A stretch of 64,000 nt of DNA from NCBI GenBank assembly GCA_905178155.1, contig CAJINV010000001.1:2125572-2189571 (forward strand), written 5' to 3'. The notes under the pieces were generated by a model, which worked only from the letters and a program-made list of their open reading frames with translations, was not told the DNA's origin and searched no databases. The DNA comes from Amoebophrya sp. A120 (lineage: Eukaryota; Protista; Dinoflagellata). Numbering within the stretch: position 1 is the stretch's first letter; each line of letters opens with the position of its first letter. Both the position numbers and the translations under genes were made by a program. Below, piece by piece: positions 51,117-63,040 of the stretch.

Positions 51117-54100
51117 CTAATTGGGGTTCGCCGCGCTCAGCGAATTCCGCAGCATCCACTTCAGCTGAGCGCGATTTTCCTTACCGGCGACCTTTTCCCG
51201 GATCGTTGCGGTGACTTGTCCAAGCACTTTGAAGAGGTAATTTGGCACGAACTGGAGCTTTTCCTGAAATTTTCTTTCCACGTCGGAAAGCAGCTTCGGG
51301 TCCTCCAGCTTTTTCTTGTTATGCATCGCAAAGTGAAGCACTGTGGCTAATGTCAAAACGCAGCACAAGAAAGCAAAGCTGCAACAAAGCAGACGCAATC
51401 CATCGGAAAGAGGCGGCGGCTTTTCTATTTCCAAACCCCCGCGTCCCCACTGAATCCGCGCCAAAATATCTGAGCGCGCGGGGGTCATTCTGCTCGCGAG
51501 AAAATGAGCAAGAGCGCAAAAGCTGCAGCGTTATTGGCGCGACTGACGCGCTTCATTCTGCCGATTCGATGAGGGGCCCGAGGAATGGCGTCGCCTGTTT
51601 GAAATAAAAATATTTGGCAACGTCTAATTACCACGGTGCTTAATTTTGCAGTGAATACTTGACGTCCTCGATCAATTTCTTCCCACTTTGGGCGATCGCC
51701 GTCGGTGTCGGCATACACCACATTTTTGTTCCTTTGGTCGGATCCTCAAAGCTCTTCAGCACTTTCATGCGCGCGTCAGAATCTTTGCCGCGAACATGAT
51801 CCGGGAACAACAGCTCCAGGAGCACCAACCGCACGGCACGACTATCCGCGTCCATTTTCGACGTCGGCAGGTGGAGACTCAGTTGCCGATGATCACGCAG
51901 CTTCAGGTGCACGCTGTGCATGGGATTGTACGAAACCAGAATCGCGTACGCCACATCGTTCATCAGGTCCCCCAGCCGGACGTCCAAAAACACGCCAAAC
52001 TCCGAGGCGGCCACTTTCCAGAAGGACCGCAAGGGCGCCACGACGAGCCCGCCGATCGCGACCCCCCCGAGGCTGATCCCGGAAAACAGTGCCAGGAGGG
52101 GGGTGATCACGCGCTTCTCGAAATCGTCGATGATCTTGTCGCTCACTTCGTTGGGGCAGACCTCCCCGCTCTTGTCCGCGTCCAGAAAACTGATAAAGAG
52201 CGCCAGGTGCGAGGACATAAGTGCGGACACGAGGCGCGGGACGTTGCGCACAAGAAACTCTTCCGCCACCTTCAACAGCTCCCCCGCGCCCTTGTAAATT
52301 TTCTTTTTCACCGACTTATACAGCGGCGACAACACGTCGTTTACGAGACCTGCGAAATTCAGCTCCAATACGGGCATGCGGACGAATCCATATGCAGTGC
52401 AAGAGCATTTACATATTTGAATTTGTACGGATTGCAACACAGCATCAATACAAGCTAAATCGGCCTTTTTTATACCAATCAATTTCGTCTTTCATCAACT
52501 TGGGAAAGTAATCATTATCATTTGTGATGCCATAAATTTGACTCTTTGTCTTTCCAGGACCAGGAGTACGAAATAATACTAACTATAACTTACTTTTGCA
52601 CATTACATAATCCAGAGTTTGCGATTATTTGCGCCTTGGCTTTCAGCCGGGGACAGCCGAGCGCTACAGAGATCTGTTCCGACAACTTTGCGCACTTGTC
52701 GAAGTTATCCCCTACTGTCCAAGCCTCATTGTCAAACACCCACTCGCACTGCTTCATTTTACCCCCCTCGCCCTTTTGCATGCTATCCCGAGAAAAAAGA
52801 GCTACAGCTACGCATTTTTTATTGCAATTTCAGCAGCACAAACAGGGAAAGTAAGTTTGCAATGCAGCGACCCCCCCCCCTAAGGGTGGAAAACACGTAT
52901 GAAACGAGGGTCGCAAGCATTTCTGGCATGACAAAGGTAAAGGCTGTCTGTCTTGTCTAATTCCGCAACAAGATCTTCACAAAAATGTGTAAAACTGTAA
53001 ACACTTTTACTCAATTTTCCTCGCATACATGCCCTCTGTGATCGAGTGCGCCGCTTCCGCCGTGGCCAGGAGCTGCCTCACGCGCCCCACGCGATCGACG
53101 TTGTGGAAGTGCCAGGGCCGAAATTGACAAAGTCGAAAAATTTGCGATGCACAAAATCGATGTCAGTTGGTGGAGCCTCAGTTTCCAAGTGGCGCATGAC
53201 ATAAACAGACTGTGCAACACGAGGTGGCATTGTGTTTCGGGTGATTTGATCAACCCAAAGACGCCGCCACCCCGGGCCCAACGGACCTGGCACTCCAAAC
53301 TTTCCTCCTCACACACACGCCTCCAAGTGGCGCATGACAAATTTCGGGAGCCTCATTTGCCTGCTCCCAAATACAGGCCTTCAGTAACCTACATTTTTTG
53401 CATCGCATATTTTTCGACTTTGTCGATTTCGATCCTGACACATCCATAGACGTCGTCAACACTGTAACAGGATTGCTTCAGCTTATCGTATCCAATGCAA
53501 ATATGTCTGGGTCTGGAAGGTTGCAACTTGTTATGCTGAGTCTGGATCATGCAAAAACTTCTGTTGCATGATTACCAAAAGATGTCCGCTTTTGACCAGT
53601 TTGACAGGGAGTTTTTCATGCAGGATAGGCACGACAGACACCTTACAGCATCTCTCATGCTAGGTGCTGCATGCCAGGCCTCATGGGTCATGGAAAACCT
53701 GCATCACAAATCTTGCATTCTTCCAGACCCAGACATATTTGCACTTCATATATCGTAGGCCGTGACAAATTCCGGCACAGCCGAATGTGCTGTCGCATCA
53801 AACAGCTCCAGCATCTATGCATTGCAAATATGTCTGGGTCTGGTATGGTATGAGGCTTTCGCCCTCCAGGCACATGGAATGCAAAGTGCAAAGGACGCTG
53901 GGTCTGCAACAAAGGTTGAAGCTGTATTGCGTGTTTCGCACATCTAAAAAATCATACTTAAGTAGCACATAAAGCGCCACACTTTCGTCATGCAAAAGCG
54001 CAGTTTGCAATGCGTTCTGCGCTTGAGAAAAAGGTTGAAAAATTTGTCCTGCTGCACTGCACCTACAGGCACAGTCAATCATGTTGACCATTCAGCATTA

Positions 54101-57100
54101 CTCGCGCGCAAGGCCCGTAGCAATAGTTATTGCGTGCGAATTTGAAGGAAAAAGGAAACAAAGGAAAAAGGAGAATTTTATTTTGGAGTAGTTGAAGTGT
54201 GTTCTAAATTGTGATTGTGTAATTACAACATACAAGTTCCCAGACCCAAACTAGTACATATTTGCGTTTGATAGCATCGTCGAACCAACAACATGTTCTT
54301 CACCTTCTGGTTCCTCCGCTGCTGCTGGTGTGCTCGTCCACCACCAGTCGTCGTATCACGAGAAAAAAGTGTTACAGTTACACATTTGTTTGAGCTTCTG
54401 CATCACAAATTTTCGCTGTGTGACAGGGAAAACTTGCAATGCGAAGATTATAAAGGGAAAACAGGAAGGAAACGAGGCTTCCAAGCATTTCCTGCATGAG
54501 AAAGGTTGCCTGTGTTGCCGGTCTTGCAACACAATGTGTAACTGTAACACTTTTTTCTTGCGATACGTTGAGCTCGAAGTCTACTACCTCCTGCGGACCA
54601 GCAAAGTAGAGACCAGCGTGTCCTCCTCGTGCGCGAGAACCTTCTTTCATCCACATGCTTCCCGGGGGCGCACGCGCACGACGAGGAAACCGATCCACTA
54701 CTTCGTCGCCGACTTGCAGCACCGTGACCCCTTTCTCCCGCTGCTTGGCCTTCTTCTGTTCCCGGTGAAAGGAAGCCCTCACGAGCCCCTGCAGCTCCGT
54801 GAGCAGCTTCGGGTTTGCAATCTGCCGGCGCAGCACCGTTCTCACTCGCATCATGACCGCGTAAAGCTCGGTGCTCTCCATCTTGGCCAGCATTTCGTAC
54901 ACCCTCGGATCGAGTTTTTCAACTAATTTTCGCTCGCTGAGTGGCGTGCGCAGAATCTTCTTGGCGCTCGCAGCCAGGTCCTGTGCCCTGGCTAAAAGCG
55001 CCGCCGGGGTGATTATGCACCACATTTTCTGCGTCCCCTCCCGGAACCGGTCGGGTTATCAAAATCAAAAATCCCCCCTCCCCATATTCAAAACGACGGG
55101 TCTGATGTTGTCGGAACTGCGTACACAAATAAGGGATCGCTGCTGGACGATTCTCAGTCTGCGCAGGCGAGTTCGAGTCTAATTGCTTCGCATGTTGGTA
55201 CTAGTGAACGGCTGCCCTGTAGTACTAGCCCCAACAGCATGAAGATAAATCGCTTCCATAATGGGGCGGAAACCCCTGCTCTTGCCTTCTTGCTGATTTG
55301 TGGCCACAGATCAGCATCACAAATTTCCATTTTGAGCACTCATGGGACGAAGGGGGAACTTTTCCTCATGGCACGAGTGCGGCCTTCCCGCCGTCCTCCT
55401 TGCCACGCACCGCGTCCGGGAAAAGCAGTTCGAAATATCACGCAAAAAAAATGACTTCCAGCACTGTGACGCATTTAGTGCAGCAGGATCTACTGCGTCA
55501 CAAGGTTGTCGCAGCACATGACGAAAGAAATGCAAATCTACTTTCATGCGTGCATCCCAACATTGGCGGATGATGAATATAACACATCTTTCTAAAATCA
55601 ACAATCCGTTGCCTTGCACTGGTAAGAGGAAAAACTACACTGCTGCACCCTTGCACGACGCTCTCCTGTATGTACAACTGCTTCATGATAAGTTTTTTTA
55701 CAGTGAAGCAGTACTTTTTTTTGACGATACGAAAAGTACGAGTTGCATTATGTCCGTTGTGGCCGCTCCCAGTTTCGCCACAACGTTCCCAGTTCCACCA
55801 TGATGATGATCATGATGATGCCGGTGGTGGTGGTGGTGGTGGTGGTGATGATGGTGGCGGTGGTGGTGGTGATGATGGTGATGATGATGATGGCGATGAT
55901 GGTCATGATGATGAGGATGATGGTGATCACCATTCCTACCACTACTTCCCCCGCCCTTGGCGTCCAGGGCGAAAACGAGCGTGCGCGAGACTTCGTTCAC
56001 CACGTAACCCAGGCGGGTGTCCAAAAACACCGCAAACTGGCTCGCGGCCACGTTCCACAAGCGACGCAGGGGGGACGCCACTAGTTCGCCGACGGGAAGC
56101 GGCCCCAGTTTCACGGCCCCGAACGCCTCTACCAGCGGGTCGATCACGCGGGCCTCGAACTCTTCCAGCACTTTCTGACTGATCTCGTTCGGGCACACTT
56201 CGCCGCTCCCATCTACATCTAACATGTCGATAAACATGACCAGATGGGAAGACAACAACGCCGATATCAGGGGCGGGATGCGTTGGCTGAAAAAGTTGCC
56301 CACTTCGTCTTTGAGGTGCTCTATGGGGTGCAGCATCTTGTTCGTTTGTTTCGAAAAAAAGTCGGCAGCCGATGTCCACATGTCGGAAGTAGTGCTGTGT
56401 AGTGTCTTGCGCGGTGGTGGTCGCTTGTGCGGTCGCGTTCGTTCTTCCGGTGGCGTCGTCGGCGCGCGTCGAAAGCCAGCGGCAGTCGTCATGTTGTGCC
56501 ACTTTTCGGTCACCCATTTTTCGACGCCTTCCTCTCCCTCCCTGCGCGCCATGAAAGAGGAGGCGCTGCCCCCGGAGAACATCGCACCCATTCTTTCCAG
56601 GAGCGGCTTCATGAGGTCCCGCACAAGTCCCCCGAAGTTCAGTGCGTGCACGGGGAGACGGATGTAGCCCGGCCGGTTAATGGCGCTTTCTCCGGCGGGC
56701 ACGGGCTCGCACCCTATCTCCACCGAAACTTGATCGGACAGCTTCGCACACTTCTCCCAATTGAGGTGATTTGTCCACGCTATGTTGTCAAACACCCAAG
56801 AGCACGCGAGGTCCTGACCCATTCCCTCCATACAATCCGCGCCTTGAAGGTCGCAGTCGCCAGATGCGGATACTCGCACGCGTGCGGTCGCGATCATTTC
56901 CCGGGCTCGAGACAGACGTCCTACGTCGTCGTTTATCGTGTAGCACTCTTTCTGCAGCTTTTCGTACGTCACCGCAAACGACTCAACGTGCTCGTCAAGG
57001 TGCAGGTTGTTGTCCGCGCTCTCCTCCAAGTTCTTTTCTTCCCCTCTGCTCTCCGCAGTTTCGGTTTTCCCCTGCCGATCCGCTTTGATGCCTCCCTCCG

Positions 57101-58643
57101 CTTTTTGTTCGGAGGACTGACTAACTTTTTCCGTTATTTTATCCGTCGCGCCAGCTTTCCCTGATGTAGTAGATGCTTTCCCTTGCGACTTATCCGTATG
57201 ATGATGCTGTTCCTGATGATGATGCTGCGCACTTTTGGATTTTTTCGTCTTTTTGATTTTATGGCGGGCCCTTCGCTTGCTTCTTCTACCCGGTACCATT
57301 AATTCCAGGATAGATTTTCCCTCCGCAGCCCCTGGGAAGAAGACTGGGCCTTCCTCTATCAGCTGTAGCATGGACGTGACACCATTCGGGAAGAGGGGCG
57401 AGATCTTCACTACTGTTGTCGCATTCTGGGGGGCTCCTGCGCCAGCAGCAGTTGAAGATTCGAGGCCATCTTCGTGGACCCTTTCGGAGTTCTGCGCTCT
57501 TGCATCAACTCTCGTCCAGCTCGGCGACAGAAGAACTTCGTCCTCTTCATGTAGTTGTGGAGATGTTGTTGACTCCGGTTTGGAGGTTTCTTCCTGCAGA
57601 ACACTGCTGCTGCTGGCGGGTACTATAATTTCTTCCCCAGCACCTCCTGCTTCCGCTAGAACATCTTGATCTGTCTCGTCGACCTCGTGCGTCTTCAAGG
57701 TGTCGACCGAAACAGACGGCGTCGATGTTGTTGACACTGGTGAGGACCTCTGATCTTCCGCGACGTCATAAAAATCGGGTGGAGATTCCTCCTCTTCTGC
57801 TGCTGCGCTTTGCTCCTCCGCAACGACGACGCCGCCACCGACCTCGACAACGCTCTGGCGGTTGATGTTAGGCGGGTCTTGTCGTACCGCCCGGACAAAA
57901 ATGAGCCACATTTTGTTGTCCGCATCATTATCTTCCCGGAGTAGATCACGCGATGTCGAGCCGTTGCGTTGTAGTTGTTGCGGAGAGAGATGTATTTCTA
58001 CCTCTTGCTCCTGCTCGCGCACACGCAACAGCAAAATCATTCCGGCAAGGTGCTGCGCCAACAGTACCAGCCCGCAAATCCACATGAGGAAGTAGTGCTG
58101 CCGCGCAGGAGCACGACCACCGATGTGGTCCTTTACTACGGGAGATGATGTGGACGACCTGAAGCCCGTCCATGTTGAAAAAGCTCGTTTAGAATTCCGT
58201 GCCGTAGGTCGAAAAGTCGATGTAGTTCCTGCTTTTCTGCCCGATGAAAATAGAAATACGGACGTCGCGGCACCTGTGACGTTGTTCCTTGCAGGAGTTT
58301 CGTTGCGTTCTACTTGTTGGGCCGGCCTATTCTTTGATGTGGTGCTCATCTTCTTGGCTCCTGAGGTACTAAACGCTCTGGTTGCACAACTACCGGGTAT
58401 CACCATCTTCATGGAGTTGTGCAGCGCCACCAATGCTGCAAGCCGAGCGTTCCCTTCACGACTTCCCTGCTGTATCAACATCTCCCTCGAAGTTGTTCTT
58501 GTCCCCGGAGTGTTTTTATCAACTTTGCCTCGTTGTTTCAACACCCGCCCTGGACAACGTCGTGGAGGAGCAAGAGTCCCTGTGTCGTGTCGCTTCATCT
58601 CACCTCGACGAGCACGCCGGCCCTGCTTTCCGATTATGACCAT
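51117..58643 (-). CDS. Large protein with two copies of an unrecognised Cys/EF-hand-like domain and a poly-His tract; 10 exons, 9 introners
   Basis: Repeat pairs: WVFDNIAW…KCAKLSDQVSV / WVFDNEAW…KCAKLSEQISV; LDVDGSGEVCPNEIS / LDADKSGEVCPNEVS; ELLFPDAVRGK / ELLFPDHVRGK. All nine junctions restore frame. N-terminal hydrophobic segment. Confidence 0.8.
51320..51657. mobile_element. Introner, weak TIR
   Basis: DR cttgt/cttga; tatgcatcgcaaa…ttttgcagtgaata; restores DVKKKLED. Confidence 0.75.
52391..52609. mobile_element. Introner, short TIR
   Basis: DR atcca; restores NSGFVR (paralogous repeat has NRPGYIR). Confidence 0.82.
52784..53027. mobile_element. Introner family D (diverged)
   Basis: DR catgc; interior similar to 54354. 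Confidence 0.85.
53102..53448. mobile_element. Introner with about 50-bp TIR (TGT left end)
   Basis: DR gacgt; TIR core gacaaagtcgaaaaat.tgcgatgca; restores DDVDRV. Confidence 0.9.
53489..53750. mobile_element. Introner family A
   Basis: DR tatcg; restores AYDKLK. Confidence 0.92.
53816..54273. mobile_element. Introner family A, long variant
   Basis: DR gcatc; right TIR has a small insertion; restores STMLEL. Confidence 0.85.
54354..54565. mobile_element. Introner family D
   Basis: DR cgtcg/cgttg; homologous to 29307. Confidence 0.9.
55057..55373. mobile_element. Introner family G (right end GCA)
   Basis: DR cgggt/cgagt; left end like 61080; restores KAA(L/P)DRF. Confidence 0.75.
55436..55729. 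mobile_element. Introner family D-like (diverged)
   Basis: DR cgaaa; restores LVLFELLFPD. Confidence 0.85.
55795..55930 (-). repeat. Coding CAY trinucleotide repeat (poly-His)
   Basis: (tga/tgg)n on + strand, in frame as HHHPHHHDHHRHHHH…. Confidence 0.85.
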
Positions 58644-59421
58644 CGATCTTGATGAAGGAGACGCAGACGTTTTTTTATTTCACGAGCGTTTTCTAGTACG
58701 GGAGACCACTTCTGCTTCTGACCGGTAGGCCGCATGAAGATCTTCTCATCGTCGGTAACAAATAGCTGTTGCCCTCAAGTACATCAGCGACGGCTCAGCG
58801 ATCCTTTGTGCTCAGATGCATGCTGTGATATCGAAAAATAAGGACCCCTCTGTCTCCCGAAAAGTGGACCCTCGCTTTACGATTTTTCACTCGTCCGAAC
58901 TCTTATACTATTACTACCCCATCGCTTCGCAGCCACGACCCCGGAACTAGCAGTCTAGAACTTCCGCACGATGACAAGCAGGAACATGATCAAAGAGGTG
59001 TCACTAGAGATGATTCCATGAGATTCATTTCTCCAGACCAGTGGATAAAAACCACGAATTGACTACAGCATCAGACTTACTTCCCAGGTCGTCAGGACGA
59101 CCGGGACTGCACACAGAAGATTGAGAAAACTTCCGCACCAGACAGGTGGTGCCTCCAACCGTTGAATACAGCGGCATCAACAATTAAGATGTTCATGTAC
59201 ATGTAGCAGACACATTCATGCCGCGCTTCTTGAACGAAATATGGTTGGCCATTCACCACACATATTTACCCCGGATGCAGATGGACTGCTCAACACATTT
59301 ACTATTAGGGCTCGCGCTGCTCCGGCTCTACTTCACAAAAAAGAAAAACTCCTCCTGCAACTGCATGAACATTTCATCTCGAAGGCCGGGACTAGATGTT
59401 GATCATCTTCCCAGCTGCTCT

Positions 59422-62153
59422 TCACTGCACACCGCACCCGGCGTCCAGTTCGGGTTGCCCCTTGCGCTTCCGCAAGATATTCCGCATCTCCAGGAGTGTA
59501 CCGGGCTGTTGCCGCAGAATCACGTTGGTGAAGGTGGTATCCAAGAAAAAAAACTGTGTATAGTGTAGGTCTTTTCTTTGGGAAAACAGCATCACAAGTT
59601 TGTCTGCCATGACAGGCAAAACTTGTGATGCGCAGATACGAAGGGAAAACACATAGGAAGCGAGCCGATCATGTACGTCGAGCATGACAAGTGTAAACTG
59701 TTTTGCATTTTCTGCATCACAGATTTACACTTAGTACACACTTTTTTTCTTGCATAGGTGGCGGGGATGTTGCCCTTGAAGTCCAGCGACGAGATGTAGG
59801 TTGCCTCCGTGTTCCCCCGCCCATTATGCACCGAACAAAGTGGCACAGTTACACATTGTGTTGCAAAACATGCAAAACAGACGACCTCTGTCATGCGATA
59901 AATGCTTAGAGGTCTCGTTTCGTGTGCGTTTCGCCTTATGAATATGATCTCTGCATTACAAGTTTCCTCCGTCATGCGAGGCAAATTTGTGATGCTGAGA
60001 ATTCAATACAAATGTGTAAGTGACACTTTTAGCCTTGGATACCCATCCGCCTTCAGCCAGTAGCCGCTATGCAAGCCTCAGCATGGAAATTCTCATCAAA
60101 GTGGATGAGCTAATTTGTGCTGCATGAAATGCGACACCAAAAAGACTGCATTGCAGAGAACGCAATGGAGGTCGACTATTGTGCGCCTACTGGTTCAGAA
60201 TTGGGCTCCTGGTTAGCACGAGAGAAGGGCACCCCTTTGCCTAACTAGCATGACAGACACGCTTTGAGTGCCCGGGAAATTTGCCATGCGCCGACTAGAA
60301 ATGGTGCTTCAACTGGAGTCGTTTTTTTGCATTCCAAATTATAATTATTTTCACTTTGGGATTTTCCACCCTGAGGCTTTCATAGCCGCATTCCCGGAGT
60401 TCCGCCCGTACGACCCCCGGTTTTTCCGGGATCTATCAGATGCAAATATGTCTGGGTCTGGAAACTTCTGATGCTAAAATGTGGATGATGGAAACAGTTC
60501 CGAATGCAACCCAGCGTGACAACTTTCCAGAACGCGTTCTCATAGGCAATCCGCATGAGAAGCTGCGTTTTTGCATGTCTGTGCAAAAGAGGCTGCGACT
60601 TTTGTTGGTCTATGCAATATAGATTTTCTAAGTATGGAACGCTAGCCTTACAAGTTCCAACCTTCTCCAGACCCAGACACTTTTGCAATCCATAGGATCG
60701 CCTCGTCGGCCACCGACTGCGCCACCAAAACGCAGCCAAAGTCCGTCGGGTGCCACGCTCGCAGTAGGCACAGGTCCCGCGGCTGCACAAACAGCGCGCC
60801 CTTGTACGCCAAGTGGGCCAGATCGCACCCGGCTGCTTGCGTTGATGTTCTTGTTGATGCGCGTGTATTAAGAACTGCGTCGTTGTGGGCTACTGTGGTC
60901 GACTGTTCATCTTTACCATCATCTCCGCCTGCTGCGCCTTCGTATTGCACATGAACCCTGCCATACTCCATCTGCGAATCCCAGAGTTTCCGGCGCTCCA
61001 AATCCACGATCAGTCCCAGGATCTCCGCCGGCTCGGTTTCGGGAAACACCAAGCGTCCACGCACCGCGATGATGTCGTCTATCAAAATGAAAAATCTCCC
61101 CTCCCCATATTAAAACGGAGATTTGTGTAGCATGATTTGTGATCACAAGTGGCGTTGTCATGCTAGAAGGGAAGAGATTCGGATTGTATTGCTGGCTGGC
61201 GCAGGAATGGAAAGCCTTGCGTCTTCAGCATGACTATGACGGCAGTAACGTGCCCAACCCCTAACTTACCCATGGGGGATAAAAAAAAAATTTCGGTTTA
61301 TCTTATATAGATAATATAGATATTTATATAAGCTACCTAGTTGAAATAGATATATAAGCTCAGTAGCTAGAAAAGGCGTTTTTGAAGGCTTCCACGACGC
61401 TACTCCGCCGACATCCAGCCTTCAAAAACGCCTTATATACATAAGCTATTAAGCTAACTAAAAACAAAGCATTTTCGCTAGCTATTTAATATATAACTAC
61501 CTTATTTACACCGAAAAAAAAAAACTGTATCCCTTTGGGTAACTAGCCTGTTGGGCACGTTACTGCCGTCATAATGACAAGAAGCAACTGGAAACGGGAA
61601 ACAGCGTGACAAATTGCCTCCAAACGAGGTAGCAACCGCGTCTCTTGGCCTTCTGGCAATACAAAGCGATTTTTGTACTCAAATACAGCAACACAAATTC
61701 CGTTTTCGATATGGGGAGGGCGGATTTTTCTCCACAATATCGTCCCCGACGTATTTTTTGCCGACGTACCGAGCGATCTCGAGTTTTTCGGCGGAAATCC
61801 TATTGTTCAAGGGCTTGGCGCCAGAACTCGATGAAGTAGAACTAGTTTGTTTTTCGCCGCTCTGGAGCACCATCCAGTCATCGTAGGATTCCGCTTGTTT
61901 CTCCAGTATCCTGTGCAAAAGTATCGTACTCGTATAAATGCTGGTCTTGCATTACAAATTTCTTTGTCAAGGCAAATCAGCATTACAAATTTTATTATTA
62001 TTTCTCATGCTGAGAAAATTTGTAATGCATTTATACGAGTTGTACGATACTTTTGCAGTTCATATCCAGAAAATCCAGGCAGCCCTGACGAACGGCCGCG
62101 AATTCGGGAGACAACGCGGTGCTGATGGGGTTCGTGCTGGTGGGAGGAGACAT
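59422..62153 (-). CDS. START (lipid-binding) domain protein; 7 exons, 6 introners
   Basis: Spliced: DDWMVL, DDIIAVRG, RKLWD, VQPRDLCLLRAW, SVADEAIPEKPGVVRAELRECGYWLK, LDFKGNIPATFTN. Confidence 0.85.
59538..59756. mobile_element. Introner family D-like
   Basis: DR ggtgg; similar to 43864; restores IPATFTN. Confidence 0.9.
59825..60041. mobile_element. Introner family D (inverted relative to 29307)
   Basis: DR cccat; restores KADGRG. Confidence 0.87.
60068..60384. mobile_element. Introner family F (inverted relative to 41291)
   Basis: DR gccgc; restores RECGYW. Confidence 0.92.
60434..60694. mobile_element. Introner family A
   Basis: DR ggatc; restores EAIPEKP. Confidence 0.92.
61235..61573. 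mobile_element. TIR element nested inside an introner
   Basis: Perfect 24-bp TIR tatgacggcagtaacgtgcccaac; DR atgac. Confidence 0.9.
61266..61542. mobile_element. AT-rich MITE-like segment, possible third nesting level
   Basis: ttaccca…tgggtaa ends; flanks ctaac/ctagc; internal 18-bp IR aaggcgtttttgaaggct (61373-61390 / 61417-61434). Confidence 0.55.
61907..62064. mobile_element. Introner family B
   Basis: DR tccag; close to 44516; restores LDFLEKQ. Confidence 0.93.
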
Positions 62154-62774
62154 TGGGTTTCTTGGGATTGGGTTTCTTCGTTGTATGTTGACGCAGCGTG
62201 TTCTTGTGCGAATATCTTGTATGTCAATGTTCTTGTCAACGATCCATTTGCGATGTTATGTTAGTGTTGCTCTAATACGGTCGATCTACTTCTGTCGCAG
62301 GTCGACAACTTCAATTTCTTGTGAAGGCAACGCAGAAAATAAGCCAAAACGTTGAATCGCGCTCAAGCTCAACGAACAAAAACTCTCTGAAGAAGAAACA
62401 GCCTAACAGGACCGATTTCTGTGCCAGCATCTGCACTCTACCGTCTCTGGTGTCAAGAACACTAACACAAGCACATGCCTGTTTATTGACCTTTAGTTTT
62501 ACTGGCACTATGATCGCCTTCTCCGTTTTGTGTGTGTAAAATAGCAGCACCCAGAACCAGGTGAAAAAAGGGGCGAGGCCCACCGGGGCCATTAGGTTCG
62601 CTATGGCCAACCTGCAGCATCCAGGGCCGTCACGTCGAGTCCCCTCGCCCCCACGGTTTTTGATTCATTTTCAAGTGGTATCCATTCTCAACAACGACGA
62701 AGAACAACGACGAAGAACAACGACGAATAAACATCTTTTGCGTTTCGCGACTGTGTTTTTTTTTTTGCGTTTTT

Positions 62775-63040
62775 CGCATATGTATTTTTTTGTGTTTTTC
62801 TCATATGTATTTTTTTGTGTTTTTCTCATACGTATTTTTTTGTTGAATAGAGGTAATGTACGGGGAGTGGCGTACTAAGAAAGGCGCAAGGATCCTCTCG
62901 AAAAGAGACTGCTGCTGCAAAAGAAAAAGGGGACTGCTGCTGCTGAAAAAGGGGACTGTTGCTGCTAAAAAAGGGGAATGCTGCTGCTGCTGCTGAAATA
63001 AAAAGGGACTGCTGAAATACTGCTTGCAAAAGGGGCTCTG
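62775..63040. repeat. Intergenic degenerate tandem repeats
   Basis: catatgtattttttt(t)gtgtttttct units, then ctgctgctgaaaaaggggact-like units. Confidence 0.6.

Follow-up and report, generated by a model that had tools for sequence, protein, structure and literature searches.

We analyzed a 64,000-nt stretch of the genome of the dinoflagellate Amoebophrya sp. A120 (contig CAJINV010000001.1 of assembly GCA_905178155.1, positions 2,125,572 to 2,189,571; hereafter the window), in which an introner, one of the TAT..ATA-bounded repeated introns of this strain, is interrupted by a second element of 339 bp at window positions 61235-61573. Our preferred reading, to which we assign a probability of about three in four, is that this inner element derives from a 10.7-kb element by internal deletion and was inserted, as a short copy, into an older introner that is probably still spliced out whole. 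One level of nesting is real; a third level and obligatory stepwise splicing are both without support. Transposons nested within one another are commonplace, and the interest of the locus lies in its link to a gene-bearing, 10.7-kb element with introner-type ends. The two would form a direct parent-offspring pair, comprising a 339-bp introner-like piece and a named long element with the same ends, a 5-bp footprint and genes of its own, and the question of what moves the introns of A120 becomes testable on one public contig. The nested intron also offers a natural test of non-canonical intron recognition, with two pairs of TAT..ATA hairpin ends in each transcript.

The nested element and its 10.7-kb relative

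The inner element lies 155 and 166 bases from the two ends of the outer introner (61080-61739; coordinates of all features in Table 1). Its 24-bp terminal inverted repeats (TIRs) are exact, with no outward extension of the match, and it is flanked on both sides by ATGAC within a plus-strand GCATGACAA motif; a sequence-only reading of the window had described this arrangement, and all of its parts lie where that reading placed them. An exact match between two 5-bp flanks has a chance probability of ~0.001 per site, and removal of the inner element together with one ATGAC restores the plus-strand GCATGACAA. The end of the inner element has no second occurrence within the window. Folded as minus strands, both elements score well below shuffled sequence, with z = -10.5 for the inner element (100 shuffles) and z = -13.6 for the outer introner (20 shuffles).

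Contigs from DNA-like runs (X1, X2 and X7, all one sample) provided outer-family members with which to assess the insertion. Seven of 15 outer-family joints examined (27 in total) skip the inner element. In four of these seven, the shorter side comprises 39-42 letters, and the intervening diverged letters end like the window's CTTCAGC and resume at or near 61574; an exact 344-base skip occurs in X2 and X7, but its shorter side there comprises 21-22 letters, which is weaker evidence when taken alone. The empty members carry a single ATGAC, which identifies this repeat as an insertion footprint, and the long relative described below is flanked by a different repeat, AATTG. The inner element is thus a later insertion into the outer introner, and the 5-bp repeat around it is a genuine footprint independent of exon context, as had been proposed from the window alone. 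Depth in X1 (112-230 for the inner family versus ~27 for single contigs), together with additional diverged contigs, gives a rough estimate of a few inner-family members.

An exact search of metagenome contigs located two oppositely oriented copies of the 24-bp end on JACKZZ010004950.1, delimiting an element of 10,702 bp (51872-62573) that has AATTG outside both ends. This long element, hereafter the parent, was examined over 1,524 bases at each end (3 kb in total; left L002:1501-3024, right L001:1-1524). The inner element corresponds to the left end of the parent (181/186 identical) followed by its right end (155/157), with the two overlapping at AGC. In the parent, the terminal repeats are identical at 24/24 positions and an inner inverted repeat at 72/74, while the long inverted ends as a whole, which include AT-rich blocks, are imperfect (164 of 229 columns alike). 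The deletion joint falls within the inner inverted repeat, which accounts for the 18-bp palindromic pair of the window (61373-61390 and 61417-61434), the sole perfect palindrome inside the inner element. The sequences flanking the parent form one open frame of ~488 codons only after removal of the element together with one AATTG; the parent is therefore a single insertion in a coding exon, in a geometry that matches that of the small introners. In its left flank lies an introner that is 73% like window element 61907-62064, so the parent contig and the window stem from the same or a close lineage. Viral contigs searched for the 24-bp inner end gave 0 matches.

Miniature inverted-repeat transposable elements (MITEs) are internal-deletion derivatives of TIR transposons. 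Their derivation is summarized in PMC7789003. The inner element resembles a MITE in being short and non-coding, in its exact 24-bp ends and ATGAC duplication, in keeping the two ends of a full-length element at the identities given above and, judging from depth, probably in having several copies. It differs in residing in a non-canonical intron, in belonging to a low-copy family and in that no parent transposase is among the sequences seen.

The sequence-only reading had further divided the inner element, singling out an AT-rich palindromic segment bounded by TTA and TAA, with CTAAC and CTAGC as flanks and a remainder of about 57 bp outside it. The ends (TTA at 61266, TAA ending at 61542), the flanks and the 57-bp length were borne out, but the AT-rich parts are only loosely palindromic and the flank match is weak, at 4/5 positions (P ~0.02, for a boundary chosen after looking). 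Taken as a further insertion, the segment would imply an ancient three-level nesting, in which a TAT..ATA hairpin of 57 bp received a long TTA..TAA element in its loop and the two then moved as a unit. In line with this idea, the perfect 24 bp are followed by seven bases that are essentially unpaired (1/7 pairing) and hold CTAAC and CTAGC, pairing resumes at TTA/TAA, and TTA also starts the introner ends of strain A25 (PMC7789003). The A25 ends, however, continue with two purines, while TTA is followed by CC here. The CTAAC-TTA and TAA-CTAGC borders are unchanged in the ends of the parent, and the segment is therefore sub-terminal DNA of the parent rather than a third insertion. A diverged copy has the same joined arrangement, with the 24-bp arm attached to the TTA part (X7 record 27). 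One X7 contig opens with 38 other letters and then matches 61235-61419 with 24 differences and 6 gaps. Empty copies of the outer family, for which the sequence-only reading had proposed a search, were found in the DNA-like contigs. The corresponding free copies of the inner segments were missing, with neither a 57-bp hairpin nor a free TTA..TAA copy in the window or among the rows examined, and none of the 15 joints examined yields the 57-bp hairpin. In every copy seen, the TTA..TAA segment is part of the larger element, the very outcome that the earlier reading had named as speaking against an insertion at this level. We consider three-level nesting highly improbable and return to the deletion-copy reading.

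Probable removal of the nested intron

The outer introner interrupts a minus-strand host gene, whose fully joined form is one long START-domain-like frame (Pfam E 0.016, below the cut-off). One contig in RNA-like runs X3 and X4 (one sample; the RNA type is a program's guess) drops six elements at once, including the nested intron at joint 61074->61740, where 665 nt are removed, equal to the element plus one repeat. This contig has 0 differences from the window in its four listed pieces and covers 905 exon bases. The same joint is present in RNA-like X5. The reading frame is open when 665 nt are removed and broken when 660 are. At four joints of the RNA-like contig (59401-62296), the skipped length exceeds that of the element by exactly 5, and the protein therefore bears no trace of these introns. 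Between two introners lies a mini-exon of 14 bases (60047-60060 as printed). Rfam returned one chance match far below the cut-off.

Given the nested arrangement, removal could alternatively proceed stepwise, as the sequence-only reading had suggested by analogy with twintrons: the inner element would leave first (344 nt, the element plus one ATGAC), followed by the restored 321-nt outer unit. The inner element is indeed built like exon-level introners, with TAT..ATA ends, A at position 13, a 5-bp repeat and a closed hairpin; on the transcribed strand, AG terminates one of its six registers and also one register of the outer introner, and the parent sits in an exon with frame-restoring geometry, so that the family may be splice-competent. 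Against this, no inner-only (344-nt) joint was present in RNA-like X3 or X4 or among the X5 joints listed, in contigs that tend to lose rare forms. The insertion leaves the outer ends and the transcribed-strand copy of the motif (61155-61163) intact, so no order appears to be forced, and in the predicted fold the outer arms stay paired while the inner hairpin closes on itself. One-step removal is therefore sufficient. Zero depth over 61201-61600 in X3 and X4 is evidence neither way, and raw-read runs X9 and X10 contributed 545 and 3 reads that cover repeats only, are all partly unlike the window and leave the host gene uncovered. Twintrons and stwintrons (PMC8469720) are similar in that an intron-like unit lies within an intron; in a stwintron, however, the inner intron breaks a signal that the outer one needs and thereby forces the order, whereas the outer ends are intact here and no intermediate was seen. 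Stepwise removal thus lacks support and is not needed; we rate it unlikely, although inner-first removal could still occur at times.

Several observations weigh against the preferred reading, with regard to both splicing and parentage. The 665-nt joint also occurs in DNA-like X1 and X2, at single-contig depth (26 and 45) and alongside further contigs that cover these flanks. The site therefore also exists as DNA in an element-free version, allele or paralog, which confirms TCGTC as the footprint of the outer introner. By the same token, the RNA-like contigs may derive from this element-free version, and splicing of the nested intron is something that we infer. Among the contigs listed, a single one extends over the junction between outer and inner elements (X1 record 1), with 6 differences and 30 letters on the inner side, one fewer than the bridging rule requires. 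Searches of Pfam and PHROGs detected no transposase or integrase in the 3 kb of parent ends, the middle 7.7 kb lying outside the search. Finally, past position 4 the inner end departs from the introner consensus of the window (C instead of the usual G at position 9, and GT instead of the usual AA at 11-12); with A at 13-14, it lacks the A120-type run of at least three A at positions 11-13 after TAT. Given this poor fit, the parent may mobilize only its own small family.

The element-free DNA also raises the question of whether the nested copy inactivates this copy of the gene, the spliced-looking transcript then originating from an element-free allele or paralog. X1 and X2 do contain an empty exon-site contig beside others over the same flanks. 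Against inactivation, the RNA-like contig matches the window exons with 0 differences over 905 bases, an empty version assembled separately through 44 exon bases should, judging from contig branching, differ nearby, and the window exons are not decayed. We regard inactivation as a rather unlikely explanation and favor splicing of the nested intron as a whole.

Under the preferred reading, the locus would have arisen in four steps. First, a 316-bp TAT..ATA introner entered the coding exon and duplicated TCGTC, as the TCGTC repeat, the reopened frame and the empty site in DNA-like contigs show. Second, a copy of the long element would have lost its middle at a 3-base overlap in the inner inverted repeat, leaving the two ends; the junction sequence itself is observed, and repair would presumably have involved template switching. 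Third, the mini-copy would have been moved in trans into the introner, duplicating ATGAC, with the footprint observed and the enzyme presumed; alternatively, a long copy may have inserted first and undergone the deletion in place. A 5-bp footprint points to staggered insertion by an integrase-like enzyme, and the chemistry here would likely be an integrase-type cut-and-join with a 5-base staggered cut. Fourth, in the transcript, the inner element is predicted to fold as its own closed hairpin while the outer arms pair, and the RNA-like contigs suggest that the 665-nt unit would leave in one step with the frame restored.

Genes and relationships of the 10.7-kb element

Like all introners of the window, the parent has TAT ends, a 5-bp repeat and an A at position 13, which makes it, judged by these sequence features, a candidate for the gene-bearing class that mobilizes them. 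Its right end carries a gene (L001:2-944, minus strand) that reads inward and likely contains a GT-AG intron, as the alignment continues in the next frame block. For the encoded protein, 18 relatives were retrieved at E <= 0.001, and eight of the ten looked up are from Amoebophrya AT5.2. A single-sequence model was unusable (predicted local distance difference test (pLDDT) score 38). The model of a relative, P0008 (34% identical to the element's protein; pLDDT 88), contains two PD-(D/E)XK domains. Its best match among solved structures is I-Ssp6803I (2ost; Foldseek E 2.4e-5; Z 13.5 and root-mean-square deviation 3.0 over 140 residues), with the next best at Z 8.7. Over its whole length, the model is matched best by three proteins of giant viruses (E 1.6e-11 to 8e-10), the first of them from an Aureococcus anophagefferens virus. 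The element's own protein retains D..QxK motifs in both halves (AD..QLK and DG..QEK). The gene family is thus predicted, on the model of a relative, to fold as a double PD-(D/E)XK nuclease, bearing in mind that a fold is no proof of function.

Other searches with the right-end protein were less informative. Sequence searches against Pfam, PHROGs and PDB assigned it to no family; word-based protein searches returned only the protein itself, nothing or three proteins; an Atlas search gave only leads at 0.89-0.90; and three pattern matches in viral contigs yielded 0 confirmed cases. Assignments of the frame to an integrase core or a piggyBac-like transposase, suggested by motifs, were dropped after alignment and fold analysis. 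Many diverged members of the gene family occur in Amoebophrya AT5.2, and proteins of giant viruses match its fold. At the left end (L002:2255-3024, plus strand), GC-rich, exon-like blocks are separated by AT-rich stretches starting with GTACAG, and the frames there have no match in Pfam, PHROGs or Atlas. With its frame-restoring geometry in a coding exon, the parent is possibly a giant non-canonical intron whose own genes have introns of canonical appearance.

Taken to its furthest consequence, the 10.7-kb element would be a gene-bearing giant introner and the autonomous driver of the TAT..ATA invasion, spliced from its host exon like the small introners, spawning mini-copies by internal deletion and possibly relying for the 5-base staggered cut on the double PD-(D/E)XK nuclease rather than on a DDE transposase. 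We judge this proposal improbable as a whole; if true, it would describe a new kind of transposon. A better-placed alternative, to which we give somewhat less than even odds, is that the long element is non-autonomous and consists of mobile ends with captured cargo, namely a selfish endonuclease gene and host-like genes, the mobilizing enzyme being coded elsewhere. The one gene identified is homing-endonuclease-like rather than a transposase, the left-end frames lack matches, and most relatives of the nuclease looked up belong to AT5.2, which is reported in PMC7789003 to have almost only canonical introns, so that the nuclease is not tied to introners. Conversely, the ends of the parent are well kept, its 7.7-kb middle leaves room for an integrase, and the 3 kb of its ends contain no GCATGACAA motif, as expected for young, foreign DNA. 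Targeting of GCATGACAA by the inner family was considered and rejected, as the site of the parent has no such motif (n = 2 sites).

Comparison with known systems places the parent between several groups. Polintons/Mavericks and Polinton-like elements are long, with long inverted ends, a short target repeat and endonuclease cargo, in addition to genes for a protein-primed polymerase, an integrase and a capsid. The parent resembles them in its length, its imperfect inverted ends with AT-rich blocks, its short target repeat and its endonuclease cargo, but at 10.7 kb it is short for the group, and no polymerase, integrase or capsid gene was found in the 3 kb of ends. I-Ssp6803I-type PD-(D/E)XK homing endonucleases and their tandem forms in giant viruses are matched in fold by P0008; the predicted protein here differs in having two nuclease-like domains per chain and in being encoded by a gene, probably interrupted by a GT-AG intron, of a nuclear TIR element rather than within a group I intron.

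Among A120 introners, a 5-bp footprint is already in print for one family. Family 38 is described in PMC12130899 as a Ginger-like TIR DNA element with a '5-bp TSD, TA/TA termini' (TSD, target-site duplication), ~810 bp in length and with Copia/Gypsy-like frames. The 5-bp target repeat and TA/TA termini recur in the present elements. Compared by description only, family 38 differs from the 10.7-kb parent and its predicted double PD-(D/E)XK protein in length and in its frames; no retroelement-like integrase frame occurs in the 3 kb of parent ends. A search of 12 of the 14 supplementary files of that paper for the first 11 bases of the end gave no match. Our literature searches recovered no report of a nested Amoebophrya introner or of such a parent.

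The outer introner and the introners of the window

The introners of A120 are described in PMC7789003 as having TAT inverted ends, about seven variable bases, a run of A, direct repeats at the borders, a hairpin fold and non-canonical splice ends. According to that paper, no transposase was found in A120 and the origin of its ~30,000 repeated introns was left open; the words 'nested' and 'twintron' are absent from the main text. The window elements share the TAT ends, variable bases, A run, border repeats and hairpin fold, and probably the non-canonical splice ends, and the outer introner itself has the described end and TCGTC on both sides. It also belongs to a repeated family, with 1,170 contigs in X1, arm depth up to ~100,000 and empty sisters. 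Differences from the published introners are that the repeats, there 3-5 nt and in varied places, are here a uniform 5 bp directly outside the ends, and that the window and its relatives add one nested element and a 10.7-kb parent.

Table 1 Features of the nested introner and its surroundings (window coordinates).
Feature	Position	Strand	Remarks
Inner element, 339 bp	61235..61573	.	Probable MITE-like internal-deletion derivative of the 10.7-kb element
Left 24-bp TIR of inner element	61235..61258	plus	Same as in parent
Right 24-bp TIR of inner element	61550..61573	minus	Same as in parent
ATGAC target repeat, left copy	61230..61234	.	Within plus-strand GCATGACAA motif
ATGAC target repeat, right copy	61574..61578	.	
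TTA..TAA segment	61266..61542	.	Sub-terminal DNA of the two parent ends; AT-rich blocks of 23-24% GC, GC-richer core
AGC overlap	61417..61419	.	Deletion junction of left and right parent ends, within the ~70-bp inner inverted repeat of the parent
Outer introner	61080..61739	.	TAT..ATA; ~90-bp arms 77% alike; high-copy family
TCGTC target repeat of outer introner, left copy	61075..61079	.	Single copy at joined site
TCGTC target repeat of outer introner, right copy	61740..61744	.	
Intact GCATGACAA motif of outer introner	61155..61163	minus	On transcribed strand
Host exon downstream of intron	60695..61074	minus	START-domain-like, Pfam PF01852, E 0.016, below curated cut-off
Host exon upstream of intron	61745..61901	minus	
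Diverged empty sister of outer family, 317 bp	55057..55373	.	Flanks CGGGT/CGAGT; right end decayed

The outer introner measures 316 bp once the inner element and one ATGAC are taken out, close to the 317 bp of a diverged empty sister in the window. An alignment of the two over 339 columns has 198 identities and a score of 183, whereas the highest score among 300 shuffles was 86. A scan for sequences that start with TAT, end in ATA, have matching arms and are flanked by a 5-base repeat, one mismatch being allowed in the repeat, identified 33 elements in the window, of which 28 have an exact repeat. When the flank condition was dropped, 39 well-paired candidates were obtained, with an exact repeat in 24, one mismatch in 4 and more in 11; the last group consists of inner or cross-paired ends of the same window elements. 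All 66 ends of the 33 elements have A at position 13, although the scan required TAT only, and the presence of this base across unrelated-looking families likely reflects a shared recognition or splicing signal. The GCATGACAA motif is concentrated in the elements as well, with 28 of its 35 window copies on either strand falling inside the 8,080 bases that they occupy. No clear pattern was found for the motif as a strand-selected branch point.

Further sequences in the window deserve brief mention. The 458-bp element at 53816-54273 combines the ends of a 252-262-bp family with an interior that is unrelated and longer. At 53104-53446, long inverted arms (54 bp, 87%) lie just within TAT..ATA-like ends that the 5-bp scan missed. 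Upstream of the host gene, the region 62680-63030 contains low-complexity runs and short tandem repeats.

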